Shown here one piece after another: positions 35 through 60,172 of a stretch of DNA of 64,000 nucleotides. Under the pieces are notes generated by a model. It searched no databases. It was not told the origin of the DNA and was given only the letters and a program-made list of their open reading frames with translations. The DNA comes from an archaeon. GTDB lineage: Archaea > EX4484-52 > WAPT01. Positions within the stretch are counted from its first letter, which is position 1, and each line of letters opens with the position of its first letter. The position numbers and the translations under genes were made by a program. The stretch is taken from the NCBI GenBank assembly GCA_029258795.1, contig JAPDKB010000002.1, positions 64,001 to 128,000 on the forward strand, given 5' to 3'.

Positions 35-175
35 GCGGGGGTTGCCGAGCCTGGCCAAAGGCGCGGGGCTTAGGACTCCGTGGCTCAGTGCCTGCGTGGG
101 TTCGAAGGCCGCTGTTCGGTGGCTGGGTTTTCAAGTCCGATCTTAACGCGGCCGGAACTCCCACCCCCCGCACCA
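35..175 (+). tRNA. tRNA-Leu(TAG) with a 52-nt T-loop intron (107..158, position 59/60)
   Basis: Acceptor stem GCGGGGG/CCCCCGC plus encoded ACCA; anticodon arm CGGGG-CT TAG GA-CTCCG; long variable arm. The T arm GTGGG TTCGAA^...^T CCCAC is interrupted by a bulge-helix-bulge: TTCG/CGGA helix, AAG and ACT bulges, GCCGC/GCGGC outer helix. Confidence 0.93.
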
Positions 176-244
176 GCCCGAACCAGATTTCTGCCAAGAA
201 TTCACCATTAATTATATAAACGATGAAATCCCCAACCTTTACTC

Positions 245-2284
245 ATGAAGAAAGTACCGATCATGAGCGCTCTTTTAATCTCCGTATTTGTTTTTATCCT
301 ATTTCTCCCAGCATCCCATGCGGTTCAGATAATCATAATCAACGAAACTGAGGAATTCGCGCCAGCAAACCTCGAAAAAATGGTTATCAGTGGCGATCTA
401 TTTGAGGGCATGCTGTATTTTAGCGCAGAAGGTTATGCGGCTGAAACCGGAGGGAAGGCAAAGGTTTACATAGCAGGAAAGCCCTCCGACATTCTTGTTG
501 AAAGCGTGACAATCAACGGAAATGAAGGAAAGGTGTTTTTTGACGAGCGGGGGTATTTTGTGGTTGTTGATACGCCCTCCTTCCATCTTGAAGGCAGGAT
601 AAAAGTGAGGAGCGGCGATAACATTCTGTTTTTCCCCGGACCAATAAACAAGCTGGAGTTCCGGCTTAAACATGGCTATGCGATAAACGGTCCGGAGTTT
701 TACGGTGTGGTGAACAAGACAATCACCCTCAAGAAAACTTTCGTGGAAAGGTACATCTCTGTTACTGGCTCTGGCAAGATAACTGTCGAAAGCACAAATA
801 CTGTAAGGTTCAAGTACGTGTTCGAGGTTGCGGGATATGGAGGGGTTATAGGCACGCTATCAATACCTCTGAACAACGGCGAGCTTGTTAACATCATTGA
901 CGTGGATAACTGCGCTGGTTCCAGCTGGAACAAGAACGAGGAAGGCATAACCTTCCAGCTGCCGTGCGAGAAGGCAATAATCACGCTGGAAGGTGTGTTC
1001 TCCTGCGGGGAATGCAATTCTATCCGCTTCACAAACCCGATAGACAGCTATATGAAAGTGATTGTGGAGGCAGTGCCGGAAAAGAAGCTCACAATCAGGA
1101 CATATGCAACGGAGCTGGATGTGAGTGAAGCACCATTTCCCATGCAATATCCTAACGGCAGGGTCTTTCTGCTCAGCGGGCATCAAGCCATGACTATTGA
1201 GGTTGAGGAGCTTGAGAAACTTCCTGCTCTTGCCGCAACTATTGATAGGGCAAAATGTACGCAAGCCATAAATAAGGATGGTGCTGCACTGACGAGTTGC
1301 GAGTACCGCTACAAGAACAGCGGTATGGATTTCATAAAGTTTGAGCTGGAAGGCACGCCATTATATGCTGAAGCTAACGATAAGTCGCTCAGGCTTACGG
1401 TTGAAGATGATGACCTTTATCTCGCTTTTCCGAAGAGCAGGTATGGAGGAGATATGGAAATCATGTATTTCACGAGCATGTCAAGAATTCTACCTATTGA
1501 TTTGATCAGCTTGCCCATCCCATCCACAGAAGTTCCAACAACCGAAATGGCTGTCGATGTTTACCTGCCCAAGGACGTTTACGTTCTGGCAGCTTTTGGA
1601 GGGGACAGATTTACAAGCGAGCTTCCTGCTCTTGAGTTTGTTGTGGCGTTCACCATAGCAGTGCTTCTTGTTGGACTCGCGCTGTGGAACGATAAGAGGA
1701 AGCTTCTCATGTTTTATGTCGTTTCCGCAGCCATATACTTCATCTCCCAGCAGCTCTTCCTGATATGGCTTGCAATCTGCCTGCTTCCGTTTGTTAAGCG
1801 CAACCTGCCGACGGAGGAAATAAAGAAGACGTGGAGGGTTATAAAGTTTCTTCTTGCTACGGGAATTGTCATAGCTGCTCTGTTTTTCGTTATTTCATGG
1901 CTGTTTTCCGGAACGGGTAGCTATATGGCAGCTAAGCAAGAAGCGGCAGTGTATAAAGCTACAGGTGAGCGATTCATTGGAAATATGCCGGTGGTGGAGG
2001 AGAAGAGTGTGCAGCTTGGCGAGGAGGGTAAGGGAACAATAACCATACAGCTGAAGGAGGGAATAAAGCCGGTGAAGATGGAGATACCGCAGCTGGGTAA
2101 GGTTGTCTCGCTGCACCGCGCTCTTGTGACAGCGGAAAGACCGGCAAGCTTTAAGCTGGTTGTGATTGACAGGCTTGTGATCTACATGTTGCTGCTGGTA
2201 GCTCTCTATTTCTTCCTCAAACTGCTTCCCGATCTCAAGAAAGCGTACATCGATGCATTTCCCTCTCTCAGAAAAATAAGGTGA
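245..2284 (+). CDS. Large exported/membrane protein of unknown function
   Basis: 679-aa ORF with an N-terminal signal peptide, a beta-rich middle region and several C-terminal hydrophobic helices; TATA-like tract upstream. Confidence 0.75.
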   Translation: MKKVPIMSALLISVFVFILFLPASHAVQIIIINETEEFAPANLEKMVISGDLFEGMLYFSAEGYAAETGGKAKVYIAGKPSDILVESVTINGNEGKVFFDERGYFVVVDTPSFHLEGRIKVRSGDNILFFPGPINKLEFRLKHGYAINGPEFYGVVNKTITLKKTFVERYISVTGSGKITVESTNTVRFKYVFEVAGYGGVIGTLSIPLNNGELVNIIDVDNCAGSSWNKNEEGITFQLPCEKAIITLEGVFSCGECNSIRFTNPIDSYMKVIVEAVPEKKLTIRTYATELDVSEAPFPMQYPNGRVFLLSGHQAMTIEVEELEKLPALAATIDRAKCTQAINKDGAALTSCEYRYKNSGMDFIKFELEGTPLYAEANDKSLRLTVEDDDLYLAFPKSRYGGDMEIMYFTSMSRILPIDLISLPIPSTEVPTTEMAVDVYLPKDVYVLAAFGGDRFTSELPALEFVVAFTIAVLLVGLALWNDKRKLLMFYVVSAAIYFISQQLFLIWLAICLLPFVKRNLPTEEIKKTWRVIKFLLATGIVIAALFFVISWLFSGTGSYMAAKQEAAVYKATGERFIGNMPVVEEKSVQLGEEGKGTITIQLKEGIKPVKMEIPQLGKVVSLHRALVTAERPASFKLVVIDRLVIYMLLLVALYFFLKLLPDLKKAYIDAFPSLRKIR

Positions 2285-2287
2285 TCT

Positions 2288-4684: not shown

Positions 4685-6571
4685 ATGCGCTTCTTCCCGT
4701 TCTCAACGATCAGGCCCGGACAAAAGGATATGGTGGAAGCTGTAAGGGATGCGTGCGAGCAGGGGAAAGTTCTGCTGGTGCACGCTCCAACCGGAATAGG
4801 AAAGACCGCAGCTTCGCTTGCTCCTTCCTTGGAATATGCGGTGGAGCATGACAAGAGAGTTGTGTTTTTAACTCCGAGGCACACGCAGCACAAGATAGCT
4901 ATTGATACAGTCAGAAGGATAAATGCTCGTGCCAACGTGAATCTGAAAGTTGTGGATGTGATCGGTAAGAAGTGGCTTTGCAGGATGGAGGGAATAGAAA
5001 AGCTGAGCTCCGCTGAGTTCAACGAGTACTGCAGAGCTCTGAAGAGAAACGAGGCCTGCCCTTTTTACAACAACACGTGGAACAGGAGAAGTGGAGGGCT
5101 TACCAAGAAAGCTGAGGCCATGATAAAAAGCGTGAGGAGAGATGTACTCTATGCGGAAGAGGTCTATGAACTTTGCGATGACCTGTGCCCCTATGAGATC
5201 CTCATGCAGGCAGCCAGAAATGCCAACCTGCTGATAGGAGACTATTATCATATCTTCCATGAAAGAATAAGGAAGAGCTTCCTCGGCAGGAGCAACACGA
5301 AGCTGGAGGATGTTGTTCTTGTGGTGGATGAAGCGCACAACTTGCCAGCAAGGATAAGGGAACTCATGTCATCATCAACAAGCCTGCTTGCAATGAAAAG
5401 AGCTGAGAGAGAAGCGGAGGTTTTTGGCTACGACGATCTGGCCGAGATCATAGCCACAATCAGAACGCATGTGAAAAAGAAGCTGAAGGAAAAGCTGGAG
5501 AAATCCGGAACACCTCAGCTTTACGTTGGAAGAAGTTTGCTGCTCGATGCAGCTGAAAATAGTGGTGCTGATCTGGAAGAGCTGCTGGACTACATGGAGG
5601 AGGTGGCTGACGAGGTCAGGGAGGAGAAAAAGCGCTCATATGTTGGCGGGTTTGCATCATTTTTGAGGAGGTGGAAGGATGAAGCTCCAATCTACTGCAG
5701 AATAGCGGAGAAGAAGCTGACCAGAAAGGGCAGAACCAACTATGTTCTCACGCTTCACTGCCTTGACCCCGCTCCCATTGCCTCGGAGGTGTTTAAGGAA
5801 GCGCATGCCACAATTCTCATGTCCGGCACCTTGCTCCCGCTTGAAATGTATGCAGATGTGCTCGGCGCAACGGAACTTGATGCAGTCAGATTGAAACTGA
5901 GGTCGCACTTTCCGCGCAGCAACAAGCTTGAGATCGTGGTGGATGATGTTACAACCCAGTACAACAGAAGGGAGGAAAGGAACTTCGAGAAAATAGCGAA
6001 ATACATCATTTCAGTAGTTAATGCCACTCCTGACAACGTTTGCGTTTTCTTCCCGAGCTATGAGCTCCGCGACACCATCGCAAGAATGGTTGAGCTCTCG
6101 CTTGAAAAGAAGGTGCTTCTGGAGAAGCAGGGGATGAGCAAGAGCAGGAAAGCGCAGCTATTCCATGAGTTTGTAAGCGCAGCTGAGCAGGGAGGAGCAT
6201 GCCTGCTTGGTGTGATGGGTGGCAGCTTCGATCAGGGTGTTGACTTTCCGAACAACGTGGTGAAGTGTGTTATCGTGGTGGGGCTGCCACTCGAAAAACC
6301 GGATTTGCTGACCGAAGCGATGATAAACTACTATGATGCTAAATTTGGCAAGGGATGGGATTATGCCTACACCTATCCCGCAGTCATAAAAGCGCAGCAA
6401 GCAGCTGGAAGAGCCATAAGGAGTGAGAAGGATAAAGCGGTTGTGGTTTATATGGACAAGCGTTATCTCTGGGCAAACTACAGAAAGTGCTTCCCTGCTG
6501 AAACAAGATTCATAGTGTCAAGAAATCCAGCAGAGCTCATAAAAAGGTTCTTCTCGGATAGCAAGAAGTGA
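4685..6571 (+). CDS. xpd: XPD/Rad3-type FeS DNA helicase
   Basis: RPGQ Q-motif, APTGIGKT, Cys ligands (C...C...ACPFY...CPYE), DEAHN, MSGTL and QAAGRAIR. Start reassigned to ATG 4685. Confidence 0.92.
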   Translation: MRFFPFSTIRPGQKDMVEAVRDACEQGKVLLVHAPTGIGKTAASLAPSLEYAVEHDKRVVFLTPRHTQHKIAIDTVRRINARANVNLKVVDVIGKKWLCRMEGIEKLSSAEFNEYCRALKRNEACPFYNNTWNRRSGGLTKKAEAMIKSVRRDVLYAEEVYELCDDLCPYEILMQAARNANLLIGDYYHIFHERIRKSFLGRSNTKLEDVVLVVDEAHNLPARIRELMSSSTSLLAMKRAEREAEVFGYDDLAEIIATIRTHVKKKLKEKLEKSGTPQLYVGRSLLLDAAENSGADLEELLDYMEEVADEVREEKKRSYVGGFASFLRRWKDEAPIYCRIAEKKLTRKGRTNYVLTLHCLDPAPIASEVFKEAHATILMSGTLLPLEMYADVLGATELDAVRLKLRSHFPRSNKLEIVVDDVTTQYNRREERNFEKIAKYIISVVNATPDNVCVFFPSYELRDTIARMVELSLEKKVLLEKQGMSKSRKAQLFHEFVSAAEQGGACLLGVMGGSFDQGVDFPNNVVKCVIVVGLPLEKPDLLTEAMINYYDAKFGKGWDYAYTYPAVIKAQQAAGRAIRSEKDKAVVVYMDKRYLWANYRKCFPAETRFIVSRNPAELIKRFFSDSKK

Positions 6572-14793: not shown

Positions 14794-17649
14794 TTAAGAG
14801 ACGGGTAAGGAAGGGTTGTTGGGCCAGTAATACATGGCATCTATTTGTGCATATGCCCATTCCTCCGCCATACCCATTCCAAATTCTGCCACCGCAAGCC
14901 ACGCACCAGCGGTAAAGTACGCTGCCACTACGTTAACCGCAGTCATGAAAGCGCTAACACCCAATTTCAAAGCCTGTTCTTGAAGGGTGCCGCTTCCATA
15001 GTAACAGAAGTTGTCAGTGTTTGTTGGAGCTCGAACAACCGAAACCGTGATTACGGGGTGAGTGGTTTTATCAATTAGCTGTTGAGGCACAATACCGTCT
15101 AAAGCACTTGTGAAGATATTGGGTGGATTACAGCTTCTTTTGACCTTAACGTTAGTCGGGAGGATATCAACATCTTCTCCAAGCCAATGCTTAAAGGAGC
15201 TGTAATCATAGAGTTCGTTATTGGCACGACCGGTGGGCTCAAAAATACCCCATATCGGATTATTCTCTGGTGTCTTTCCCACACAGTAAACTTCCTCTCT
15301 TATGGGTAAGGGCATACCATTCTCTACTATTATTCCTCCAGCACCAGTAACTTTAGCCACATAAACACAGGATTTAGGCCAAGAGGCACATATGTCTCTT
15401 GGAGGTGGTGTGAACGGATTCACGAAATCGGTAAACCAACTCCAGTCCGCACCAGAATAAGGTAACAAATTACACATTTGGATTAATGCCGCGCACTCCT
15501 CATACATTTTTCGAGTTTCATTATTATCATCTTTTGTTACTACGTGGTCGATTACATGGTCTTGATAATATTTTTGGAGGTCATCAAGCACCTCGTCATC
15601 AGAGTGTGAGTCATCGAATAGAACTAATTCAGTATGCGTTTTAATATCTTCAGGAATTTTTTCGGTGTCACAATTAAGCTTTGTTTTGACATATTCCGCA
15701 CACACATGTCTATCAAATCTAGTGACAGCACATTCTTTTGTGGCGGTTTTTGAAACCAGCAAGTCCGCTTTGCAGGGAGCGGCAAAATACATTCTTAAAC
15801 TTGAACCTCCCTTGTCGATCTCCACAAAATAAGGTCTGACTTCATCCACCAGCTTTATGGTTTGAGTTGCCCTCTCCGGGCTGGCGGAAGCCGTGAGAAT
15901 GTCCAGCAGGAACACTTTTTGAGGGGAGTAAACATGAAGTGTGTTATAGTCAGAAGGCAACTCCTTGACTTTGAGTGCCATGTCTATTTGCTGAGTGGTA
16001 TAGAGGAGTGCAGCAAGAGCACAGGTCGAAAATCTCTTGAAAGGTCTACCACTGCCTGTCAGAGCTGTGCACTCATAAGAGTTTTTCGCAACTTGTGCCC
16101 AGTAAGAATCTTCCGGTATGATCTGATCCGCAAGTCCGGTATCATCAAGCGCTTCCAGCATCCAGAAGGAGAAATGTGCACCTTCTCGGTAAGCCAGAAA
16201 CTTCATAACCTCCGGGAAATTCTTCCCCACCCCTTTCCAAAATTCCGGACTTAATTTTCGCTGACCCATGAAGCCATATTGATCGGCTAACTTTCTTATA
16301 TTATTTTTGAGCGCTTGGTATGTAGTTTCATCATTTAGAGCATCCTTGAGTATACCCATCGCCTCTTCTTTACTTCCAGCATTTTTTATCTTCTCCAAGG
16401 TTTCTTCCGGTAAGTCCTTCGCGATTGTCGATGCTATTTTGTTATCTGTTTTTAGAACTACCACTGCCAACTTGCTATCTAACTCACCACTTTTTACCCC
16501 CTTAACTATTTCATAGATTCTTTTCCATTGATCTCCCATTTCTTTTATGCTTAGAGTGTAACCTTTAGTGTTAAGATCTCCAAAAATTTCTCGAAAAACA
16601 ACACTTCCGTCCTCTCCATTTCTAATAGCATTTTGCAGCTTTTCGGCTGCTTCTTTGGCAACGTTTTCACTCACGCCTTTATTTTTTAACCACTTTTCAA
16701 AACTCTCCGCCAGGATTTCGTCTCCATCCTTTCGTAGCGTCTTGGCAAATCCTTCCAAGCCCTCAGTACAGCTTTTTAGTGCAATTCTGGATAGAACCTT
16801 CCCTTCTCCTCCAAATATTCTGCCCAAAAAGTTCAGTTTTTTAAGCGCCTTAAAAGCCTTCCCAGCTATACCGCCGCCAACGTTCAAAAATCCCGCAAGC
16901 ACCATACTTCCGAAGAGGTCTGCAGCTTCTTCAGACTCGAGCCATGCCTGCTCTTCTCCCTCTGGAAAAGAATTGTAATAAATTATGACATCAGGGTCGT
17001 AATATTTTGGTTTGATTCTCTCACCGAACTCAACTTTCCCGCTTTCATGCTGTTTCAAGTCAAAATTGAACACTTTACACTTGAATTCTGGTGTGTTCAG
17101 TTGAGAATAGTATTCAGTTATCTTCTCATCCTTGCTGGCGGGATTGCTCCATAAAGCATCTTTTGATAGCAATGTGCTGTTCGCACACACAACAACACTA
17201 TTACCGAACCTGTAAGCAACGGGTTTTTCCTCAGCATAGGCAAGCTCGATTCCAAATAATCCTGTTACAATGTTCTCAACCTTTCTCTTAACTCTTTTCA
17301 TATCCCTTATCATCATCGCCGTTGGGTTGTTTTTTCCAGCTTCTATTGCATTTATTGCATCATCAAATGTGTATAGAGGCTCTATCGTTACTGATCCTGC
17401 ATTGTTCGTTATTTCTGAATTTTCACAGGTATAGTCGTTAATGTATCCTGCAGCCTCACTGTTTATTGCGCAAGCTAACGCTAGAGCTGAAGCCTGGCTT
17501 ATGGGGTCGATTTTGAACTCGAGAAGCTTGCTTAAGAATTCATTCAGGCCTATGATGAATGCCACAAGAAGAAACAATATGAAAATGAAGAGAAGTATTC
17601 TAAAAATAGGTTCTTCTTTCAACGTGGCTTTGGTACGGGAGAGTTTCAT
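14794..17649 (-). CDS. Large (951 aa) Cys-rich membrane-anchored surface protein
   Basis: N-terminal basic stretch plus TM helix, many Cys, internal amphipathic Gly-rich segment, C-terminal hydrophobic hairpin. Confidence 0.8.
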   Translation of the reverse strand: MKLSRTKATLKEEPIFRILLFIFILFLLVAFIIGLNEFLSKLLEFKIDPISQASALALACAINSEAAGYINDYTCENSEITNNAGSVTIEPLYTFDDAINAIEAGKNNPTAMMIRDMKRVKRKVENIVTGLFGIELAYAEEKPVAYRFGNSVVVCANSTLLSKDALWSNPASKDEKITEYYSQLNTPEFKCKVFNFDLKQHESGKVEFGERIKPKYYDPDVIIYYNSFPEGEEQAWLESEEAADLFGSMVLAGFLNVGGGIAGKAFKALKKLNFLGRIFGGEGKVLSRIALKSCTEGLEGFAKTLRKDGDEILAESFEKWLKNKGVSENVAKEAAEKLQNAIRNGEDGSVVFREIFGDLNTKGYTLSIKEMGDQWKRIYEIVKGVKSGELDSKLAVVVLKTDNKIASTIAKDLPEETLEKIKNAGSKEEAMGILKDALNDETTYQALKNNIRKLADQYGFMGQRKLSPEFWKGVGKNFPEVMKFLAYREGAHFSFWMLEALDDTGLADQIIPEDSYWAQVAKNSYECTALTGSGRPFKRFSTCALAALLYTTQQIDMALKVKELPSDYNTLHVYSPQKVFLLDILTASASPERATQTIKLVDEVRPYFVEIDKGGSSLRMYFAAPCKADLLVSKTATKECAVTRFDRHVCAEYVKTKLNCDTEKIPEDIKTHTELVLFDDSHSDDEVLDDLQKYYQDHVIDHVVTKDDNNETRKMYEECAALIQMCNLLPYSGADWSWFTDFVNPFTPPPRDICASWPKSCVYVAKVTGAGGIIVENGMPLPIREEVYCVGKTPENNPIWGIFEPTGRANNELYDYSSFKHWLGEDVDILPTNVKVKRSCNPPNIFTSALDGIVPQQLIDKTTHPVITVSVVRAPTNTDNFCYYGSGTLQEQALKLGVSAFMTAVNVVAAYFTAGAWLAVAEFGMGMAEEWAYAQIDAMYYWPNNPSLPVS

Positions 17650-17686
17650 AGTTATGGTTTTGATATTAAGTGGTATTTATTGATTT

Positions 17687-17809
17687 TGGTGCGCCGGCCG
17701 GGATTTCCTGCTGCGGAACAGCCGGAAATGTGAGGGAGTTTCTTCCGCAGCAATCGAACCCGGGTCAGCGGCTTGGGGGGCCGCTGTCATACCACTAGAC
17801 CACCGGCGC
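17687..17809 (-). tRNA. tRNA-Gly(CCC) with a 49-nt T-loop intron (17704..17752)
   Basis: Acceptor GCGCCGG/CCGGCGC plus ACCA; anticodon arm GCGGC-CC CCC AA-GCCGC; intron stem GCTGCGG/CCGCAGC with a relaxed BHB (G.A mismatch in the central helix). Confidence 0.88.
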
Positions 17810-17888
17810 ACAATATCCAATCTTCTGCAAGAATGTTTTTGCCGGTTCAACCTTTAAATTTATTAATGATGCAACCCACAATTTCGTC

Positions 17889-18404
17889 ATGACTGGAATA
17901 ACGATTCGCGAACCAGAAATGAATGATGCCAAGCTTCTTCTTGAGTACTTTAACGAGCTGATGGAGGAGAGAACATATCTGGTTTATGATAGAAAGATGA
18001 CGTTGCGAGAGGAGAGAAAGTGGTTGAAGGAACAGCTGGAGAAGATGAAGAAGGGCAAGCTGGTTTTTGTTGTTGCCGAAGCGGACGGGAGGATCGTCGG
18101 CACAGCGCGTATAGAAAGAAAGAATGGTAGAGAGAGTCATCTTGCAGAGTTCGGGATAGCGGTATCCAAGGACTACAGGAGCAAAGGCATCGGAAAAATG
18201 CTGTGGAATGCAGGTTATGAACGCGCTAAAAAGCTATGGGGCGGAAAAGTGAGATACCTCATTCTGTATGTTTTTGAGAACAATGATATCGCACAAAATT
18301 TTTACAGAAAACTGGGCTTCAAGGAAGTTGCCCGCGTCCCGAATGCCATAAGATGGAACGACGGAAGTTTGATAGATGATATAGTGATGATGCGAGAATT
18401 CTGA
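17889..18404 (+). CDS. GNAT family N-acetyltransferase
   Basis: VSKDYRSKGIGKML (motif A) and NDIAQNFYRKLGF (motif B). Confidence 0.9.
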   Translation: MTGITIREPEMNDAKLLLEYFNELMEERTYLVYDRKMTLREERKWLKEQLEKMKKGKLVFVVAEADGRIVGTARIERKNGRESHLAEFGIAVSKDYRSKGIGKMLWNAGYERAKKLWGGKVRYLILYVFENNDIAQNFYRKLGFKEVARVPNAIRWNDGSLIDDIVMMREF

Positions 18405-18411
18405 TGTTTCG

Positions 18412-19434
18412 TCATTTCCTCTTCTTTCCACACCACACATGCACCAGCATTTCTTCCCTGCTAATTCCACCATGAGCACCTATAAGCTCAGCACTTTTTT
18501 GCCTCTCAAACGGGTAAACGAACCTTGCATTATTATCCGCTATTACCACCACATTTCCATACATCCTGTAACATCTTCTGCTTATTCTTCCTTCAAACAA
18601 TTCGGATAGCGCACATATCTCCACATATTTATCCTGAGGCTTAAGCGCCTTCGACACAGTATCAACAGTTGTGTCCTTGTAAAAAGCCACTCTGCTACCG
18701 CCGACAGGCACACATCCGTCTACTTCCGGCAGTTTGATTTTATGTGTGGTTTTTATCAAACCGTGATCGGATAAAATGATCAATTCCGACCCTTCAGGCA
18801 TCTTTTTCCAGAGATGTTTTACGAATACCTTTATCATTGCTCTCTCGACCGTCATGGCATCGTTATCAAAACTCTTGTGAAGTATGCGATCCACACCATC
18901 CCAATAGATGAGTGAGAAATCCGCTTCTCTGAGTGGGAACACCTCAGACAGTTGCTTTATCCCTACGATTTCGGCGTGCTTGCATGTCATTCTCGTGAAA
19001 ATGCTATCTGGATATGGCGTGTAGTAGCATGCTTTCAGTCCCATCTCGTATAACATTTGGGATAATGGCTTGAAAGGAAAGACACGTCTTTTAAGAATCT
19101 TTTCATCAACTTCTACACTTTCGGGATAAGCTACGTGCCAAGGAGGGATCTCCATTATCAACTCCTCTCCATAAACTTCAACTCTCGCATACCATTCCAG
19201 ATAGCCGTGCTGATGTGGATCCTTCAGTGAATGGAACGAGTATTGAAATGTGGGTGTGGATGACGGAAAGACAGTTCTATATAAGTGCCTTTTCAGGGAC
19301 CTTAAGCCAAGCTCCCTTGTACCAAACCCATCAATAAGAAAGAGTACAGTTGGGTGTTCCTTTGCAATTTCGGGAATATCTCGAATCAAATCCATCAATT
19401 TAGGTATCTCTTCATACCGGAATGAGCTCCTCAT
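18412..19434 (-). CDS. Alkaline phosphatase superfamily nucleotide pyrophosphatase/phosphodiesterase-like protein
   Basis: LIDGFG, FPSSTPT (Thr nucleophile), DRILH, LSDHG and AHGG motifs. Confidence 0.8.
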   Translation of the reverse strand: MRSSFRYEEIPKLMDLIRDIPEIAKEHPTVLFLIDGFGTRELGLRSLKRHLYRTVFPSSTPTFQYSFHSLKDPHQHGYLEWYARVEVYGEELIMEIPPWHVAYPESVEVDEKILKRRVFPFKPLSQMLYEMGLKACYYTPYPDSIFTRMTCKHAEIVGIKQLSEVFPLREADFSLIYWDGVDRILHKSFDNDAMTVERAMIKVFVKHLWKKMPEGSELIILSDHGLIKTTHKIKLPEVDGCVPVGGSRVAFYKDTTVDTVSKALKPQDKYVEICALSELFEGRISRRCYRMYGNVVVIADNNARFVYPFERQKSAELIGAHGGISREEMLVHVWCGKKRK

Positions 19435-19542
19435 AATTTAGTGGGGGGTAAAAAACTATTTAATATAGTGCTCTGTGGAACATTGTCTCGACATCTCAAT
19501 ACACGCGAACCATTTTAAAGTTTGGTTTTGCTCTTCTAAGGT

Positions 19543-20040
19543 ATGGGCGATTCAATGAAAAATGGATTCGAGGCGGCAAAAGAGGTTTACGATCTCAAGC
19601 GCGAGAAATATGGTTTACCTCCTTTTGAGGTCATCTCAATTCTTTTCGATGTTTCCAATCTCGGAAGGCCGGCACGCTTCATTCTGTACGAGATAGCTCA
19701 GTGCATGACTCAAACCGTCAACACCATGCTTGCTCTTATCGAAAGCCTGGTTTCAGGGATGAGGTTGGGCTCATCCTACGAGTACAAGATGCTCACGCTG
19801 GAGGAGAGAGAAGCGGTGAAAAAAATGTGGTTCAAGCTCCAGAGCAAGATGTGGATGCTTCACCGCATAAGCTCGAGCTTGGATGAGGAGGAATTGTGCA
19901 AGGGTATAAAGGAAGTGTACGACTTCTGGGTGAACGAGTTCATACCGTTCAGGGATGTGGTGTTCAGGAAGCTGGAGGAAAGATGGGACAATCAGAAGGT
20001 GAAGAAGCTCGGACAGGAGAGTTTGGAAATATATGAGTAG
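19543..20040 (+). CDS. Hypothetical helical protein
   Basis: 165-aa ORF downstream of a TTTTAAA promoter; typical codon usage. Confidence 0.65.
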   Translation: MGDSMKNGFEAAKEVYDLKREKYGLPPFEVISILFDVSNLGRPARFILYEIAQCMTQTVNTMLALIESLVSGMRLGSSYEYKMLTLEEREAVKKMWFKLQSKMWMLHRISSSLDEEELCKGIKEVYDFWVNEFIPFRDVVFRKLEERWDNQKVKKLGQESLEIYE

Positions 20041-20045
20041 CTTTC

Positions 20046-21074: not shown

Positions 21075-21182
21075 GAACGAAAAATTAGTATGATGTGTAT
21101 TTATTAATTACTCTTATCGCGATAAGCACTTTGATGAAGCACCCAAAAATATATTAATCCCTTTGAACCCAAATTTTAAGGT

Positions 21183-21941
21183 ATGGCGAGAACAAGGATA
21201 AGAAGGGTGAAGTTCGGGATTCCGGGACTGGATGAGGCGCTTGGTGGTGGCATACCTAAAGGAAATGCTGTGGTGCTCTCAGGTCCACCAGGATCAGGAA
21301 AGACCATTCTGGGTTTGCAGTTCTTGATCAACGGAGCAACCATGTTTAAGGAGCCGGGAGTTTACATCACTCTGGAGGAAGAAAGAAAGGATGTTGTGGA
21401 TCAGGCATCCGTTTTTGGATGGGATCTGGAAGAACTGGAGAAGAACGGCATGCTTAAGATAGTGGAGCTGAGAAGGGAGGACATTCCGACCTTCCTGAAC
21501 GGATATCTCGATGAGCTCAAGAAAAAAATGAATCCCGCCAGAGTTGTTGTGGACTCGATAACCTTTTACTACGCTTACGCGCTCCTCCACACCTACACCA
21601 AAGAGTACATAAAGACGCAGCAGGAGCTGCTTTTACATGATGGGGACCGGATGACACATCCAATGGTGGCAAGAACGACCATAATGGATCTCGTGAGAAA
21701 ATTGAAATCGATGGGTGTGACGTCTTTACTCACTTCCGAAATTCCGGGTAGCTCCCGCTATTACACTCGAGATAAGCTTTCAGAGTTCATAGCAGATGGT
21801 GTCATCACACTGCACTCTGTGGAAGTTGGAGAAAAGAACTTCAGAAGCATAAAGATAGTCAAGATGAGGAAGACGGGTCACGAGTTCGGGTACATTCCAT
21901 TTGAAATCACATCCAAAGGCATAGAGATCAGAAAGATGTAG
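21183..21941 (+). CDS. KaiC/RAD55-like RecA-superfamily ATPase (single domain)
   Basis: GIPGLDEALGGG, GPPGSGKT, YITLEE, VVDSI and IVKMRKT motifs. Confidence 0.92.
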   Translation: MARTRIRRVKFGIPGLDEALGGGIPKGNAVVLSGPPGSGKTILGLQFLINGATMFKEPGVYITLEEERKDVVDQASVFGWDLEELEKNGMLKIVELRREDIPTFLNGYLDELKKKMNPARVVVDSITFYYAYALLHTYTKEYIKTQQELLLHDGDRMTHPMVARTTIMDLVRKLKSMGVTSLLTSEIPGSSRYYTRDKLSEFIADGVITLHSVEVGEKNFRSIKIVKMRKTGHEFGYIPFEITSKGIEIRKM

Positions 21942-22036: not shown

Positions 22037-22189
22037 GGGCCGGTGGTCTAGCCTGGAAGGACGTCGCCTTGGCATCACACAGCTTTCACGGCTGTGTGCC
22101 AGTATGGCGGAGGCCCCGGGTTCAAAATGGCTGCTTACGCCGTTTTAAGAATCGGGCAAGCTTTCATGAAAATCCCGGCCGGTCCACCA
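22037..22189 (+). tRNA. tRNA-Ala(GGC) with two introns: 37/38 (22075..22104) and 59/60 (22127..22172)
   Basis: Acceptor GGGCCGG/CCGGTCC (G3:U70) plus ACCA. BHB1 is TTGG/CCAG with CAT/TAT bulges; BHB2 is TTCA/TGAA with AAA/AAT bulges. Confidence 0.93.
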
Positions 22190-28275: not shown

Positions 28276-28409
28276 TGGCGCCGCGGGCCGGATTTTCACT
28301 TCTCAAAGAGCAGGTTTCCTCTTTTATTCCCAGCTCCGCTTCGAACCGGCGCGCCCTTGCGGGCAGTGGCTCTCGAGGCCACCGCACTACCTGGCTATGC
28401 GACCGCGGC
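28276..28409 (-). tRNA. tRNA-Ser(CGA) with a 47-nt T-loop intron (28293..28339)
   Basis: Acceptor GCCGCGG/CCGCGGC, G73 and CCA; anticodon arm GTGGC-CT CGA GA-GCCAC; long variable arm; TTCG/TGAA helix with AAG/AAT bulges. Confidence 0.92.
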
Positions 28410-38805: not shown

Positions 38806-38929
38806 CCCGCCGTAGCTTAGTCTGGTAGAGCGCTCGGCTGTAGGTCTGTGCCGCGTGGTATGGCGCAGCCACGCAGCCAGTTGCTCAGAAACCGAGAGGT
38901 CCCCGGTTCGAATCCGGGCGGCGGGACCA
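38806..38929 (+). tRNA. tRNA-Tyr(GTA) with a 47-nt canonical intron (38844..38890) and an intact T loop
   Basis: C1:G72 acceptor CCCGCCG/CGGCGGG plus ACCA; CTCGG-CT GTA G^...^A-CCGAG; TTCGAAT uninterrupted. Confidence 0.92.
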
Positions 38930-42670: not shown

Positions 42671-42794
42671 TGGAGCCCCGGCCGGGATTTTCATGGAAGA
42701 TTACTCGACCCTTAAAGCGGCGTCGAGCAGCCATTTTGAACCCGGGACCTCTTCCTTACCAGGGAAGCGCTCCACCAGGCTGAGCTACCGGGGC
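42671..42794 (-). tRNA. tRNA-Thr(GGT) with a 47-nt T-loop intron (42688..42734)
   Basis: Acceptor GCCCCGG/CCGGGGC, U73 and CCA; CTTCC-CT GGT AA-GGAAG; BHB TTCA/TGAA with AAA/AAT bulges and TGG/CCA outer helix. Confidence 0.93.
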
Positions 42795-51926: not shown

Positions 51927-52514
51927 TTACACCTTCCTTTTATCTCCAATTACGGATGAGCATTTGAGATACCACACATACCAATAAGCTATCACCACTG
52001 CCGTGAGCCCCCACCTCCATAGATGGATGTGGACAACATCCATGAGGTCTGTGCCGTATTTTATGCCCACCATTATGGTTGTGACGAGGCGCATGATATT
52101 CATTACAAATATGATCAGCGCTCCACCGAGTATTCCAGCCAACCTGTGCTCCCATCTCACTCTGGGAGATGCGATTATTAATCCGAAAATGGCCAGAAAG
52201 GATTTCCAGCCCACACAGTCCCGTATTATCTCAACAGAAACGCCGGAAGCATGCACAATTACTCCATTCGCTATGGCTGCATAACCAACCAGATTGAGCA
52301 CATGAGCCACACATCCAGCAACGATTTCCTGAAGCCAGGTCATATCGACGTTCATCCACAGAAGAAAATGGAGCAAGCCAGCGGTCATTGTGAACTTAAT
52401 CAAAAATATGAGCACCTCATACAGCTTTTTGTCTCGCTCACTCAGATTTTCCACAAACTTTCGTTCTTTCTTTTTGAGCTTCCGAAACGTTTTCAAGAGA
52501 ATATTTGAGCGCAT
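51927..52514 (-). CDS. Archaeosortase/exosortase family protein
   Basis: Catalytic-type Cys (IIRDCVGW), Arg (NIMRL) and His (VVHIHLW) in a multi-TM protein. Confidence 0.82.
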   Translation of the reverse strand: MRSNILLKTFRKLKKKERKFVENLSERDKKLYEVLIFLIKFTMTAGLLHFLLWMNVDMTWLQEIVAGCVAHVLNLVGYAAIANGVIVHASGVSVEIIRDCVGWKSFLAIFGLIIASPRVRWEHRLAGILGGALIIFVMNIMRLVTTIMVGIKYGTDLMDVVHIHLWRWGLTAVVIAYWYVWYLKCSSVIGDKRKV

Positions 52515-52590
52515 ACAAATATTTTACTTCGAAGAAAACATTAATAATGGTGATCACAAGGAAAGCAGCCTTCTGGGTGCTCAGTTAAAT

Positions 52591-52725
52591 TCAGCTGGCT
52601 ATCATCATTCTTTCTCCACAGCATTCTGGAGGAGAATTGAATGCATGACACTCTCTATGCTCCTCACGCTCCACCGTCTTCCCGCATCTGGTACACACAT
52701 ATTTTCTCTTTTTTACAGCACTCAT
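52591..52725 (-). CDS. 44-aa Zn-ribbon microprotein
   Basis: MSAVKKRKYVCTRCG...PPECCGERM; TTTATATA about 25 nt upstream implies a leaderless transcript. Confidence 0.7.
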   Translation of the reverse strand: MSAVKKRKYVCTRCGKTVEREEHRECHAFNSPPECCGERMMIAS

Positions 52726-58880: not shown

Positions 58881-58920
58881 CGAGTGAGAATTTAACCCTC
58901 AATCCTTGTAAGGTGAGCAT

Positions 58921-59937
58921 ATGCAGTGTAAAGACGTAATTCCACCACACGGCCATGGCCTGATGACCAACAATCGACTTATCTTCATCATGTGGGGCAG
59001 GGTGCTGTTCGGCAATGATCCGTTGTATGTTCTGAAGTATGTACCATCCAAAGGGTCAGGAGAAGATGTTCGAATTTTTAATGGTATGCGTTATCTGAAG
59101 GTGAGATCACCCATTTACGGCTACAGCAACATGATCGAAGTTCTCACGAGTGTTTGTCCAAAATATGTCGGCCAATCCCCATATTTTACTAGGAGGGTTG
59201 TTTGCATTCCGGAAGAGGACATCTCCCGCATTTTCTCGCCCGTCGAGATTGCAGAAAAAATAATCTCTGATCCTCAGGACCCGGTGGAAGAAAAATTTGT
59301 AGATTACTGCGAGTTTTTTAGAGAGCAGATTGGAGGGGGTGTAGGATTCGGCATCACTGCTTCACTTATGTTCGGAATGCACACCACCAAATCTGACATA
59401 GATCTGATAATTTACAGCCAAAACCCGCAGCAGGTCCAGCTGAAAATTTTTGAACTGATTGAAGAAGGGATGGTGTGCACAGCTCTCAGAGAAAACGAAA
59501 AGGAGAAGAGAATCGTTGAGAACGTGTTTCAGCAGAAGGTGGATGAAAGTTTCATAAAATGGCTTGTGGAGCAAAGAAGATATTACGGCTCATTGAGACA
59601 TCCGGAGATTGGTGTGGAGTGCCACCTCATGCTCCTGTCCAAGCAAACTAAGGTGATTGAACACAAGCCATGTGAAGTTAGACGCGTATGCGTTGAGGGA
59701 GAGGTGGTGAATGCTGATGAGACCTGCTTATCCGCGCCTGAATTTGAAATAAGGTGTGGGAATGAAACTTTCTGGGTGGTGTGCTATCACAGAGGTGGAG
59801 AGCTTGTGAAAACAGGTGATAGAGTTTCATTAGCGGGAGACATGATGAAATTTTCTGATGGCTCAGCATTAATAGCTCTCGTGGACTGGAACGATGACTG
59901 GCTCAGGATTTTGAGAACTGAGCAAAGCTTGCGCTGA
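58921..59937 (+). CDS. Archaeal predicted nucleotidyltransferase (COG1665-like)
   Basis: GITASLMFGMH..KSDIDLIIY motif; C-terminal OB-like region. Confidence 0.72.
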   Translation: MQCKDVIPPHGHGLMTNNRLIFIMWGRVLFGNDPLYVLKYVPSKGSGEDVRIFNGMRYLKVRSPIYGYSNMIEVLTSVCPKYVGQSPYFTRRVVCIPEEDISRIFSPVEIAEKIISDPQDPVEEKFVDYCEFFREQIGGGVGFGITASLMFGMHTTKSDIDLIIYSQNPQQVQLKIFELIEEGMVCTALRENEKEKRIVENVFQQKVDESFIKWLVEQRRYYGSLRHPEIGVECHLMLLSKQTKVIEHKPCEVRRVCVEGEVVNADETCLSAPEFEIRCGNETFWVVCYHRGGELVKTGDRVSLAGDMMKFSDGSALIALVDWNDDWLRILRTEQSLR

Positions 59938-60012
59938 GCTTCGGAAAAGAACCCTATGAAATTTTTTAAAATTACCTGCCATACTATACTCACGTTGTTA
60001 TCGTGTTTTCAC

Positions 60013-60172
60013 GGTCCCGTAGCTCAGCTGGTTGGAGCGCCGGTCTTATATGACCGCGGGAGCTAAAAATAACGGCTGTTGCTCCCGTGTCTAGGCCAGC
60101 CGGAGGTCGGGGGTTCGAAAGCCATCTAGAGAAACTGGAAAGAGAATATGGCAGAAAATCCCCCCGGGACCA
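60013..60172 (+). tRNA. tRNA-Ile(TAT) with two introns: 37/38 (60051..60097) and 59/60 (60120..60158); CCA not encoded
   Basis: Acceptor GGTCCCG/CGGGACC, A73; CCGGT-CT TAT G^A-GCCGG. BHB1 is CTTA/TAGG with GAC/GTC; BHB2 is TTCG/AGAA with GCCAT/ATGGC. Confidence 0.88.

Follow-up and report, generated by a model that had tools for sequence, protein, structure and literature searches.

Recurrent insertions in the T-loops of tRNA genes

Why should so many tRNA genes of one archaeon be interrupted in the T-loop, and always at the same place? The question is raised by a 64,000-nucleotide stretch of DNA (the window) from the genome of a DPANN archaeon (G000; 1.2 Mb, a metagenome bin, 96% complete), whose tRNA genes are listed in Table 1 together with the state of each site in the congeners G001 and G002. 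The inserts of the Leu(TAG), Gly(CCC), Ala(GGC), Ser(CGA), Thr(GGT), and Ile(TAT) genes all lie precisely between T-loop positions 59 and 60, and exon 1 ends in TTCRAW and exon 2 begins with T in 6/6 of these genes, as the initial annotation had described. The additional canonical 37/38 introns that it had reported for Ala(GGC) and Ile(TAT) were also located, leaving Tyr(GTA) as the sole gene of the seven with an uninterrupted T-loop. The Leu(GAG) gene that ends at the window edge carries a 45-nt 59/60 intron plus an insert of ∼31 nt on the 3' side of the anticodon stem. Resemblances between introns extend across isoacceptors: the Gly(CCC) intron is 84% identical to that of Cys(GCA), and the 59/60 intron of Ala(GGC) is 81% identical to that of Thr(GGT). 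Standard callers do miss or mislabel such genes, as had been anticipated. ARAGORN got one of the seven, with wrong bounds (44-121), and its label for the Ala(GGC) gene, Thr(ggt), is wrong; the gathering score of the Rfam tRNA model was reached by two of the seven, one merely as a fragment.

Table 1. tRNA genes of the window and their introns (window coordinates; the last column gives the state of the 59/60 site in the congeners).
Feature	Position	Strand	Remarks	Congeners
tRNA-Leu(GAG), last 5 nt (CACCA)	1..5	+	gene = G000:C2:63833-64005, mostly upstream of the window	
tRNA-Leu(TAG) gene	35..175	+	CCA encoded	
Leu(TAG) 59/60 T-loop BHB intron, 52 nt	107..158	+	strict motif, H = TTCG/CGGA	G002 orthologue intron-free
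tRNA-Gly(CCC) gene	17687..17809	-		
Gly(CCC) 59/60 intron, 49 nt	17704..17752	-	GCTGCGGA...TCCGCAGC family; H 3/4 paired	G002 orthologue without intron
tRNA-Ala(GGC) gene	22037..22189	+	two introns	
Ala(GGC) canonical 37/38 BHB intron, 30 nt	22075..22104	+		
Ala(GGC) 59/60 intron, 46 nt	22127..22172	+		G002 empty; G001 holds a different intron
tRNA-Ser(CGA) gene	28276..28409	-		
Ser(CGA) 59/60 intron, 47 nt	28293..28339	-	H 4/4 paired, inner helix relaxed	filled by a 26-nt intron in G001 and G002
tRNA-Tyr(GTA) gene	38806..38929	+	T-loop TTCGAAT intact; ∼47-nt anticodon-loop intron only	
tRNA-Thr(GGT) gene	42671..42794	-		
Thr(GGT) 59/60 intron, 47 nt	42688..42734	-	strict motif	G002 orthologue uninterrupted, exons 74/74 identical
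tRNA-Ile(TAT) gene	60013..60172	+	two introns; CCA not encoded	
Ile(TAT) canonical 37/38 BHB intron, 47 nt	60051..60097	+		
Ile(TAT) 59/60 intron, 39 nt	60120..60158	+	H 3/4 paired	filled in G001 and G002

Genome-wide census

The whole genome was scanned without use of the BHB motif: the pattern comprised TTCRA, a T-stem of 5 bp able to close over an interval of 10-200 nt, and an acceptor stem of 7 bp, and acceptance of the spliced sequence by ARAGORN served as the final filter. The scan returned 29 genes (30 rows, with Met appearing twice) versus 1 in the reversed genome, and the pattern of T-loop inserts is not due to chance. With Arg(TCG), read by hand, as the 30th gene, 59/60 introns are present in 30 of the 45 resolved tRNA genes, and the remaining 15 keep an intact T-arm; the near-saturation claimed from the window (6/7) thus amounts to 30/45 for the genome as a whole. 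The insert directly follows the sixth T-loop nucleotide in all 30 genes, and this one position accounts for 30 of the ∼43 introns counted in total (∼70%). The G000 tRNA census is incomplete to the extent that no gene for Lys(UUU), Thr(CGU), Arg(CCG), or a third CAU tRNA could be located.

Could the interrupted genes be pseudogenes in decay, assembly errors, or chimeras of the bin, the real tRNAs coming from elsewhere, such as a host? DPANN cells are host-dependent, and the metagenome bin does include foreign contigs (C11 with bacterial-type tRNAs; C10, C12, and C17 at 28-31% G+C). Against this explanation, the 30 genes are spread over seven of the eight largest contigs, removal of the insert gives an ARAGORN-accepted tRNA with a 7-bp acceptor stem and a 5-bp T-stem in 29 of them (Arg(TCG) being the exception), CCA is encoded in 26, and BHB pairing is kept. 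Ten of the sites are filled in two other assemblies as well, and the same region occurs in independent public contigs, one of which, X2, contains 0.72 of the sampled words; no RNA run was found to contain this DNA. Trp, Cys, His, Asp, and other single-copy essential isoacceptors occur in the interrupted form only, and the check for intron-free copies proposed in the initial annotation yielded only duplicates on contig C11, clustered beside a bacterial-type (class II) tRNA-Tyr. We consider a non-functional origin of the inserts extremely improbable.

The splicing motif and its predicted enzymes

Their sequences mark the inserts as genuine archaeal BHB introns between T-loop nucleotides 59 and 60, with predicted splicing. 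The TTCR tetramer pairs 4/4 with the intron 3' end in 27 of the 30 genes, in agreement with its proposed role as one strand of the central helix; the T-stem is paired 5/5 in all 30, and 21 introns form a strict hBHBh' motif with the T-stem as the outer helix. Nearest-neighbour folding recovered the T-stem in 28/30 cases, mostly together with an intron hairpin, and gave the 4-bp central helix flanked by its two bulges in 2/30 only, thus offering no support for the motif; a bound enzyme may be needed for that helix to form. The T-stem of the tRNA itself would act as the outer helix of the precursor, T54-T55-C56-R57 would pair with a YGRA tetramer near the intron 3' end to make the 4-bp central helix, and the inner helix would be the intron hairpin, typically GCYGCGGA...TCCGCRGC. 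The two 3-nt bulges would consist of A58-N59 plus the first intron base and of the last two intron bases plus T60; a single EndA would cut both, and RtcB would join the exons to restore a normal TTCRAWT loop. Because the TTCR exon half-site is supplied by every tRNA, one intron cassette should be spliceable in any of them, which would make 59/60 a universal landing site. The canonical 37/38 intron is organized alike: a 5-bp stem provides the outer helix, loop nucleotides 1-4 enter the central helix, the 7-nt loop is cut after its sixth nucleotide, and the enzymes are the same. It differs in lying in the anticodon loop, the sequence of which varies among tRNAs, so that 37/38 introns are tailored to each tRNA whereas the TTCR half-site is constant.

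The G000 genome encodes RtcB and one EndA with both N and C domains, and a maximum-sensitivity profile search of all ORFs found no EndA paralogue (next E = 0.38). The closest EndA enzymes are those of M. kandleri and M. jannaschii, and a 7-residue insert precedes the catalytic His, as in N. equitans; the insert is common to DPANN relatives and absent from Methanosarcinales. Four copies folded together scored 0.69 versus 0.02 for the best control (contact agreement at least 79%, pLDDT 82), a mark reached by 20/30 solved homomers and 1/23 monomers, although a similar complex has already been solved, so the score may reflect the model's memory. This EndA is alpha4-like, encoded by one gene, and bears the DPANN 'L3' insert. 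The broad-specificity endonucleases that the initial annotation had linked to non-canonical introns would not be needed for most of those in G000, 21/30 motifs being strict, and an L3-type EndA common to the whole phylum does not explain a burst in G000.

Comparison with congeners and the timing of the probable burst

The motif-free scan was extended to one congener, G002 (all 856,925 bases), where it detected 10 introns, all at sites occupied in G000. Fifteen G000 introns face an uninterrupted T-loop in G002, so at least half are absent from the sister species. Fourteen of these empty sites were identified by contiguous gene matches and Arg(TCG) by a contiguous match from the anticodon to the 3' end; at least one 2.5-kb flank lies on the same G002 contig in every case except Leu(GAG), the downstream flank of which includes the adjoining Leu(TAG) gene. 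Five of the 30 sites (Asp, Glu(TTC), a Gly(TCC) copy, and two Pro(TGG) copies) were not comparable. For Val, Thr(GGT), and Gln(TTG), the exons match those of the intron-free G002 orthologues at 100% identity, and 10 of the 14 junctions compared are identical over 36 nt. A covariance model gave, at E≤0.01, 30 matches in G000, 9 each in G001 and G002, and 0-7 in other genomes of the order; being trained on G000 introns it under-counts others, and it found 9 of the 10 G002 introns at this threshold. When 32 candidates per genome were scored in 151 archaeal genomes (≥90% complete), G000 had 29 matches, the next genomes 7, 7, 5, 4, and 3, and 127 genomes none. The G002 Cys gene gives unbroken alignments in 13 genomes from four further families of the order, and the same holds for the G002 Val(GAC) gene, with 79-86% identity, in five f2 family genomes (full-length but weaker matches outside f2 may be other Val isoacceptors); both alignments break, at position 61-64, in G000 only.

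These are very probably genuine 59/60 BHB introns of a family that multiplied in the G000 lineage, in a burst specific to it. An ancestral family of the genus, residing in Leu(CAG) and Glu(CTC), would have multiplied there and raised the occupied sites from ∼10 to 30 of 45 genes. The acquisition at one site postulated in the initial annotation is upheld by related introns in unrelated isoacceptors, by the absence of at least 15 from near-identical G002 orthologues, and by the orthologous Ala(GGC) gene of G001, which bears a different intron at the same position. Alternatively, the genus ancestor may have held ∼30 T-loop introns, of which the G001/G002 lineage precisely lost ∼20. With an identity of 0.88-0.94 between their orthologous introns, G001 and G002 are close sisters, so one loss episode could cover both, and the single T repeated at each junction, with bulges that often match (AAT/AAT), could permit precise deletion. 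Furthermore, the similarity of G000 family introns to one another is about the same as their similarity to the G002 introns of Leu(CAG) and Glu(CTC) (0.80-0.82), which leaves most copies undatable. The uninterrupted Cys and Val(GAC) matches in other genomes speak against such a loss, as do the ceiling of 7 model matches elsewhere in the order and the different introns of the Ala(GGC) orthologues. The two top G000 paralogue pairs (0.96 and 1.00) are more alike than the orthologous introns of G001 and G002 and thus appear younger than the split of those species, although intron-to-intron gene conversion could have inflated paralogue identity. We judge ancestral presence with wholesale loss to be quite unlikely.

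Possible routes of intron spread

Twelve of the 30 introns fall in families of 80-100% identity that span different amino-acid types. Identity reaches 0.96 for Ala(CGC)/Val(GAC) and 1.00 for Leu(CAA)/Leu(CAG), and is 0.81-0.84 among the Cys, Gly(CCC), Gly(TCC), Glu(TTC), and Pro introns, versus a shuffled null maximum of 0.64. The T-arms flanking similar intron pairs are only 0.58-0.87 identical; the Val flank, CCAGG-TTCGAT, differs from that of Ala(CGC), CCGGG-TTCAAA, despite 96% intron identity. No intron copies outside T-loops were detected by blastn-short, 40/40 matches lying inside known T-loop introns. Our best guess, a tentative one, is that introns arrived as discrete units bounded by the EndA cut sites, by reversal of splicing at the RNA level with later fixation in DNA. 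This route is favoured because recipient exons are unchanged up to the junction even when they are unlike any donor, and it is weakened by the result of a PF00078 search, which found no reverse transcriptase in the 96% complete genome.

Copying at the DNA level, with selection then favouring exactly spliceable insertions, is about as likely as RNA-level entry. Spread by DNA alone, through homology-driven gene conversion or duplication among tRNA genes that share T-arm sequence, is a possibility to be taken seriously; it fits the negative search for a reverse transcriptase, and a DNA-level process is assumed in reviews (PMC4090602). The Leu(CAA)/Leu(CAG) and Pro genes share both intron (1.00 and 0.81) and T-arm flank (1.00), as whole-gene or long-tract conversion would give, and Pro(CGG) has flanks that correspond to the Pro(TGG) locus of G002, an indication that a gene was duplicated within the Pro family. 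In cross-isotype pairs such as Val and Ala(CGC), by contrast, similarity ends at the intron borders with no flank co-converted, and the identity of the Val, Thr, and Gln exons and of most junctions to intron-free G002 genes likewise argues against a DNA-only route.

The initial annotation had further proposed, after an idea of Randau and Soll, that the introns are kept or selected because they break the T-arm sequence used as attB by virus or plasmid integrases. In its favour, a single tyrosine recombinase, of Xer-like type, was seen in G000, and the 3' part of the neighbouring tRNA is not repeated, but few integrases are normal for a 1.2-Mb symbiont-type genome; no tRNA-flanked integrated element was found in G000, and these observations are uninformative either way. 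The 15 genes with an intact T-arm mean that targets remain, the congeners that hold 9-10 introns are not known to have more integrated elements, and selfish or neutral spread accounts for the same data. We regard protection from integrases as unlikely, and the T-loop introns are probably selfish or neutral passengers.

Relation to known systems

The novelty is smaller than first thought, as both 59/60 introns and intron transposition are already in print. Introns at 59/60 have been described in ARMAN-2, also a DPANN archaeon (PMC3239211). As far as the relevant parts of that paper go, single genes are described at this position, versus 30/45 in G000; the ARMAN-2 intron was cut in vitro by the ARMAN-2 EndA, whereas splicing in G000 is predicted from sequence. 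The ARMAN-2 enzyme is a three-unit epsilon2 type and that of G000 one alpha4-like gene, and the ARMAN-2 Cys intron has 13 nt and a relaxed hBH motif, whereas G000 motifs are mostly strict. Alpha4-type EndA with L3 in DPANN and Hadesarchaea (Kaneta et al. 2018, PMC5829648) resembles the G000 enzyme in being a single gene with an insert before the catalytic His, and such enzymes were tied there to more disrupted tRNA genes; the pertinent sections report proportions of disrupted genes for few genomes, without describing a concentration at one site or a burst at the level of species. The closest parallel is found in Thermoproteales, in which similar introns are reported to have spread across tRNA genes (Fujishima 2010, as cited in PMC4033280 and PMC4090602). 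According to these accounts, near-identical introns likewise occur in tRNA genes of different isotypes with dissimilar bodies, and gain within a clade was fast. Families of at least 80% identity hold 12/30 T-loop introns in G000 and, by a different clustering method, 28.3% of 272 Thermoproteales intervening sequences (benchmark figures, bioRxiv 10.64898/2026.10.13.758758, section 2.5). The Thermoproteales belong to another phylum, with an (alpha-beta)2 EndA carrying the crenarchaeal loop rather than an alpha4-like enzyme, and their introns, up to three per gene, are described at canonical and various non-canonical positions, whereas ∼70% of those in G000 share one position. Unlike the Thermoproteales case as presented in these sources, the burst in G000 is resolvable at the level of species within one genus, making this genome a natural case for the study of archaeal tRNA intron spread.

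Intron-bearing tRNA genes in the window

On reading, the first tRNA locus of the window proved to be a complete tRNA-Leu(TAG) in which GTGGG-TTCGAA is followed by a 52-nt insert and then by T-CCCAC, the acceptor strand, and ACCA. A CGGA near the end of the insert is able to pair with TTCG, the two 3-nt bulges are AAG and ACT, the inner helix is GCCGC/GCGGC, the outer helix is the T-stem, and the cut sites are predicted between T-loop nucleotides 59 and 60 (59/60). Judged by its sequence, this insert is a textbook hBHBh′ motif. The same T-loop arrangement was found in Gly(CCC), Ala(GGC), Ser(CGA), Thr(GGT), and Ile(TAT), with strict BHB introns also at 37/38 in Ala(GGC) and Ile(TAT); Tyr is the sole tRNA of the window whose T-loop is intact. 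When the loci were read and the motif pairing was tabulated, the description of these six inserts in the initial annotation was correct in every detail that could be checked. Its warning that standard callers might miss or mislabel such genes was borne out as well. ARAGORN called one tRNA among the seven genes, with wrong bounds, and the Rfam tRNA model reached its gathering score at two loci, the Tyr gene and a fragment, with a third fragment added in permissive mode. Annotation of the genomes of this lineage is expected to under-call tRNAs badly, which would distort completeness estimates and codon-usage inferences for DPANN bins.

The window also holds an archaeal SRP RNA (Rfam RF01857, 139 bits) and three weak, sub-threshold Rfam matches to C/D-box snoRNAs (19–26 bits, E = 0.7–5.5), which may be archaeal sRNAs or chance matches. 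A tRNA-Ile(UAU) is present, and only two CAU tRNAs were found genome-wide; an excerpt of PMC3239211 describes a like pattern in ARMAN-4 and -5, without tRNA-Ile(CAU) and TiaS.

Coordinates of the tRNA genes and other features discussed (contigs of the studied genome unless stated)
Feature	Location	Strand	Remarks
tRNA call by ARAGORN	window 44-121		bounds wrong
tRNA-Tyr (Rfam)	window 38806-38926
tRNA fragment (Rfam)	window 42739-42794
tRNA-Ile(UAU)	window 60013-60172
tRNA-Leu(GAG)	C2:63833-64005, ending at window 5		T-loop intron plus ~31-nt insert directly 3′ of the anticodon stem, exact insert borders not fixed
SRP RNA	window 27079-27355	+	full length
C/D-box snoRNA match	window 5317-5385	-	sub-threshold
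C/D-box snoRNA match	window 29326-29361	-	sub-threshold
C/D-box snoRNA match	window 30349-30394	+	sub-threshold
Arg(TCT), D-loop intron	C5:~23285-23420	-	~20a/21, outside window
Arg(CCT), D-loop intron	C3:~79310-79436	+	~20a/21, outside window
Arg(TCG), D-loop intron	C1:64108-64300	-	~20a/21, outside window
Val(CAC), D-loop intron	C2:~52490-52612	+	~20a/21, outside window
tRNA-Leu(CAA)	C3:113040-113230		anticodon-loop intron of 55 nt
tRNA-like locus	C3:58968-59098
Intron-free tRNA cluster	C11:165-495		four genes
EndA	C6:35296-35889		197 aa
Tyrosine recombinase	C7:47627-48121		between tRNA-Thr(TGT) and tRNA-Gln(TTG)
Thr(GGT) partial alignments, to ~60-65	G009:C25:27416-27474; G014:C11:14247-14310; plus f5 genomes		families f8 and f5 (G009 and G014, other genomes of the order)

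Genome-wide census of 59/60 introns

The studied genome (GCA_029258795.1, hereafter G000) is assembled in 23 contigs of 1.17 Mb in all and is 96% complete; the window corresponds to C2:64001-128000. A scan that started from the BHB motif gave 169,284 candidate motifs and 50 spliced tRNA calls; it included 22 loci with a T-loop junction, or 22 of the 30 in the final set, and was superseded by a scan in which the motif was not used. The motif-free scan required TTCRA, a 5-bp T-stem closed over a gap of 10–200 nt, a 7-bp acceptor stem, and acceptance of the spliced sequence by ARAGORN. It returned 29 genes, and the same scan of the reversed genome, run as a control, returned one match. R1, a covariance model built from the alignment of these 29 split T-arms, recovered all of them together with Arg(TCG), which has a D-loop intron as well. 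The 30 true matches scored at least 39 bits, and intact T-arms appeared as 28-nt matches at no more than 28.9 bits. Removal of the insert yielded a cloverleaf accepted by ARAGORN in 29 cases, and the 30th, Arg(TCG), was read by hand.

A 59/60 intron is thus present in 30 of the 45 resolved tRNA genes. The 15 intact T-loops on the main contigs are those of Gly(GCC), Gln(CTG), Met, Tyr, Ile(GAT), Lys(CTT), Gly(TCC), Val(TAC), Val(CAC), Arg(TCT), Arg(CCT), Ala(TGC), Asn, Phe, and Thr(TGT). Sorted by site, the introns number 30 at 59/60, 8 in the anticodon loop, 4 in the D-loop, and 1 as an extra insert in Leu(GAG), so that about 30 of 43 lie at one position. Their density is approximately 0.95 per gene (43/45) versus 0.84 for the Thermoproteales by tRNAscan-SE 2, as given in an excerpt of PMC8450103; it is therefore the concentration at one site, not the density, that stands out. 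The census of this 96% complete genome contained no Lys(UUU), Thr(CGU), Arg(CCG), or third CAU tRNA.

Four intron-free tRNA genes on the 9-kb contig C11 form a tight cluster, Thr(TGT)-Tyr(GTA, with a long variable arm)-Gly(TCC)-Thr(GGT). Class II tRNA-Tyr is bacterial according to an excerpt of PMC4033280, and this gene together with the gene order, both bacterial marks, suggests that C11 is probably foreign to the binned archaeon. G+C contents are 28–31% in contigs C10, C12, and C17 versus 44% genome-wide. One tRNA-like locus on contig C3 combines a Glu-type acceptor stem and an intact T-arm with about 57 extra nt in the anticodon region and no CCA; exhaustive single deletions recovered no tRNA structure, and the locus may be Arg(CCG) or a pseudogene.

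Motif anatomy of the T-loop introns and other inserts

The initial annotation had assigned the inserts to BHB introns at 59/60 with TTCR as one strand of the central helix, and this assignment held across the genome. The intron tetramer forms 4/4 pairs with TTCR in 27 of the 30 introns and 3/4 in the other three; by base counting, a random tetramer would pair with TTCR at a frequency of 1/64 to 1/32. The outer helix, which is the 5-bp T-stem, is paired at 5/5 positions in all 30. Strict hBHBh′ motifs were found in 21 introns, and the nine relaxed motifs comprise three with one central-helix mismatch and six with a displaced or short inner helix. Every junction reads TTCRAW/intron/T followed by the 3′ strand of the T-stem, i.e., it falls after the sixth of seven T-loop nucleotides (with an uncertainty of 1 nt for introns that begin with T), and the predicted spliced loop is TTCRAWT in all cases. 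The sequences accordingly display the features of the BHB class, namely two 3-nt bulges around a 4-bp helix, flanking helices, and a cloverleaf after removal. Minimum free energy (MFE) folding gave the T-stem in 28 of the 30, usually plus an intron hairpin, and the full central helix with both bulges in 2; we judged such folding to be unsuited as a BHB test and counted its outcome neither way.

The four D-loop introns constitute a second class, set apart from the 59/60 family by eye, and the three from Arg genes resemble each other by the same measure. Searches for a strict BHB motif in these four and in the Tyr intron found none; a relaxed, asymmetric motif could arise if the conserved D-loop YTGG paired with CCGG close to the end of the intron. 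In G002, one of the two congeners (the other being G001), the match to Arg(TCG) has a break of about 40 nt in this D-loop region. The extra insert of Leu(GAG) is present in G002 as well, and the "Ser(tga) with intron" called by ARAGORN in G001 and G002 is the ortholog of this gene. The C/D-box-like sequences GTGATGA and CTGA occur in the anticodon-loop intron of Leu(CAA), which may encode a C/D-box guide RNA.

Similarity of the introns in dissimilar exons

Alignment of the 29 split T-arms revealed a shared frame, T/A-GCYGC(GGA)... ...(TCC)GCRGC-YGRA-AA. Pairwise identity of the introns, expressed as matches over the longer length, was 1.00 for Leu(CAA)/Leu(CAG), 0.96 for Ala(CGC)/Val(GAC), 0.81–0.84 among Cys, Gly(CCC), Gly(TCC), Glu(TTC), Pro(CGG), and Pro(TGG), and 0.81 for Ala(GGC)/Thr(GGT); shuffled sequences averaged 0.49 and peaked at 0.64. 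Among the 25 pairs listed, with intron identities of 0.76–1.00, 23 have T-arm flanks that are 0.58–0.87 identical, and two are same-isotype pairs with identical flanks. In cross-isotype pairs the flanking T-arms are far less alike (0.58–0.87) than the introns. Whole-gene duplication would explain part of the Pro and Leu cases. No intron copy was found in G000 outside the known T-loop introns, all 40 blastn-short matches lying within that set.

Occupancy of the same sites in relatives

With R1 at E ≤ 0.01, we obtained 30 matches in G000, 9 in each of the congeners, and 0–7 in the other 39 sampled genomes of the order. At E ≤ 0.001 and a completeness of at least 80%, the phylum as sampled amounted to 28 genomes, none from outside this order, which gave 30, 7, and 8 matches and 0–6 in the rest. 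Among 151 archaeal genomes at least 90% complete, for each of which 32 candidates were scored, G000 had 29 matches, the next had 7, 7, 5, 4, and 3, and 127 had none. Because R1 is biased towards the introns of G000, G002 was scanned by the motif-free method over 856,925 bases in 33 contigs, which is nearly its whole genome. Ten T-loop introns were found (Ser(GGA), Leu(CAG), Ile(TAT), Ser(CGA), Leu(TAA), Glu(CTC), Pro(TGG), Ser(GCT), His, and Arg(GCG)), all at sites that are occupied in G000 too.

At a further 15 of the G000 intron sites the T-loop of G002 is uninterrupted: Cys, Met, Thr(GGT), Gly(CCC), Ala(CGC), Ala(GGC), Leu(TAG), Leu(GAG), Leu(CAA), Pro(GGG), Val(GAC), Gln(TTG), Trp, Ser(TGA), and Arg(TCG); five of the 30 sites were not comparable and were left out. 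Contiguous gene matches were obtained for 14 of the 15, and the Arg(TCG) match runs unbroken from anticodon arm to 3′ end. For 14 of them, one or both 2.5-kb flanks lie on the same G002 contig, the exception being Leu(GAG), whose downstream flank includes the adjoining Leu(TAG) gene. Exon identities between the two genomes reach 74/74 for Thr, 73/73 for Val, and 72/72 for Gln. The junctions are identical over 36 nt in 10 of 14 cases, and in two of the other four R57 is G in G000 versus A in G002.

Polarity was read from alignments of G002 genes with more distant relatives. The Cys gene of G002 is matched over its full length in 13 genomes of four other families of the order (f2, f3, f6, and f7), and in G000 the match ends at position 61. 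For its Val(GAC) gene, five f2 genomes give full-length matches at 79–86%, and G000 gives one that ends at position 64; the weaker full-length matches to Val(GAC) from other families may represent different Val isoacceptors. Full-length matches to the Thr(GGT) gene come from two f2 genomes, and its alignment stops near 60–65 in genomes of f5 and f8, where the breaks may represent independent T-loop introns in the same isoacceptor. Ala(GGC) has a 59/60 intron in G001, of a different subfamily from that of G000, and none in G002. Orthologous introns are 0.88–0.94 identical between G001 and G002 and 0.40–0.76 identical between G000 and G002, and two pairs of paralogous introns in G000 stand at 0.96–1.00. 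Taken together, the uninterrupted relatives, the different Ala(GGC) intron of G001, and the high paralog identity make gain in the G000 lineage the economical reading of these alignments. Two points temper it: members of the G000 family are approximately as close to the Leu(CAG) and Glu(CTC) introns of G002 (0.80–0.82) as to each other, and gene conversion from intron to intron could raise the identity of paralogs.

Among the sequencing runs listed as containing this DNA, none was an RNA run. Contigs from four DNA runs, compared with window 17600-37599, showed no clean joint at any intron. At the introns they break or switch to paralogous tRNA genes, examples being an apparent joint at 22063-22167 and loose ends that match the Ala(CGC) locus, and they consequently give no evidence on presence or absence within populations. 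An exact 17-position pattern of the T-loop/intron junction occurred in at least 118 metagenome and 17 viral stretches; these were read as chance, and a covariance-model check of 97 loci of the at least 135 gave no match.

Splicing enzymes and the arrival of intron copies

EndA is encoded by one gene with N-terminal and catalytic domains (PF02778 and PF01974). No second EndA or beta subunit was detected in the 96% complete genome with Pfam models or a lineage profile of 80 relatives applied at maximum sensitivity to all ORFs (next E = 0.38), although a diverged beta subunit may have escaped detection. The initial annotation had left the EndA architecture to be identified; the gene content, one two-domain gene of the ~180-aa type with no structural beta subunit, fits an alpha4 (homotetrameric) enzyme. 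The nearest solved relatives are those of Methanopyrus kandleri (E = 6e-38), Methanocaldococcus jannaschii (alpha4, 5e-31), and the catalytic subunit of Nanoarchaeum equitans. The closest database records, a "Nanobdellati archaeon" (90%), MAGs labelled Nanohaloarchaea (62–68%), and then Aenigmatarchaeota, agree with a DPANN placement. A four-copy fold scored 0.69 versus 0.02 for the best control; 20 of 30 solved homomers attained this mark, as did 1 of 23 monomers. Contact agreement was at least 79% and the pLDDT was 82. Because the like tetramer of M. jannaschii is already solved and the score may simply reflect that structure, this fold shows likeness, not binding.

Ahead of the catalytic His, EndA has a 7-residue insert (NPYKKGEKS) that aligns with the one in N. 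equitans and is absent in M. jannaschii. On this alignment it is the counterpart of the "L3" loop described by Kaneta et al. (2018; PMC5829648), an excerpt of which links L3-bearing alpha4 EndA in DPANN to more disrupted tRNA genes. In published work an L3-type insert is associated with a broader substrate range. The insert is common to the sampled DPANN relatives, and Methanosarcinales are without it; since the relatives share it, the enzyme is a permissive background and not the cause of the burst in G000. A gene for RtcB is present, and excision by EndA with ligation by RtcB is predicted from the genes and the motif.

Copies would enter as a discrete unit bounded by the EndA cut sites, a reading that we rank slightly ahead of copying at the DNA level with selection for exact borders. 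Homology-driven DNA conversion is opposed by two observations: similarity ends at the intron borders, and the recipient keeps its own T-arm sequence even where this is unlike that of the host of the most similar intron. Selection could yield exact borders as well, because an insertion leaves a single-copy tRNA in working order only if it rebuilds a cleavable motif, and for this reason the discrete unit is placed only slightly in front. A route through RNA is opposed by the search for a reverse transcriptase (RVT_1), which found none in G000. We nonetheless offer, tentatively and as less likely than not, a protein-less, site-specific mobile intron that, once excised and probably circular, re-enters other tRNAs at 59/60 by reversal of EndA/RtcB under the guidance of YGRA/TTCR pairing, the gene then being rewritten from the interrupted RNA with no dedicated reverse transcriptase involved. 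If this were true, the genus, whose occupied sites number 9–10 in two of its species and 30 in another, would be where ongoing "homing" could first be caught between species.

Protection from viral integration, a possible benefit suggested in the initial annotation, is the idea of Randau and Söll according to excerpts of PMC4033280 and PMC4090602. The sole tyrosine recombinase of G000 is Xer-like by sequence. An integrated element beside tRNA-Thr(TGT) was considered and dropped because this neighboring recombinase is Xer-like and the contig has no partial tRNA repeat; a search of C7 for an att-like repeat of tRNA-Thr(TGT) found none.

Comparison with known systems

The feature is real and extends across the whole genome, and it is not a new category. 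Introns at 59/60 are reported for ARMAN-2 in Cys and, together with 53/54, in Pro(GGG), one of them cut in vitro (PMC3239211, in part). The literature searched, in which the label "59/60" is not searchable as a term, yielded no earlier report of such concentration at the T-loop or at a single site. Reviews regard the mechanism by which archaeal tRNA introns arrive as unknown (PMC4090602, in part), and a 2026 census of Asgard genomes gives no general route of arrival (bioRxiv 10.64898/2026.10.13.758758). G000 offers an unusually clean natural experiment, with one site, one recognizable intron family, at least 15 insertions that a congener with up to 100% identical exons lacks, a second insertion acquired independently at the same site in the other congener, and a minimal enzyme set (one EndA and RtcB, with no reverse transcriptase detected). 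Being conserved in all tRNAs, the T-loop is able to act as a universal acceptor for one intron cassette. The interest is chiefly for the evolution of tRNA introns and for DPANN annotation.

The spread of similar introns across tRNA genes has been proposed for the Thermoproteales (Fujishima 2010, via excerpts of PMC4033280 and PMC4090602). Families of at least 80% identity hold 28.3% of 272 intervening sequences in the Thermoproteales and 1.5% in Asgard archaea, as obtained by another clustering method (bioRxiv 10.64898/2026.10.13.758758, section 2.5). Like the transposing introns of the Thermoproteales type, those of G000 are similar in different isotypes with dissimilar exons, and their presence or absence at orthologous genes differs between close relatives, here G000 and G002. 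The reported spread in the Thermoproteales covers canonical and noncanonical positions, whereas the G000 family was found at 59/60 only.
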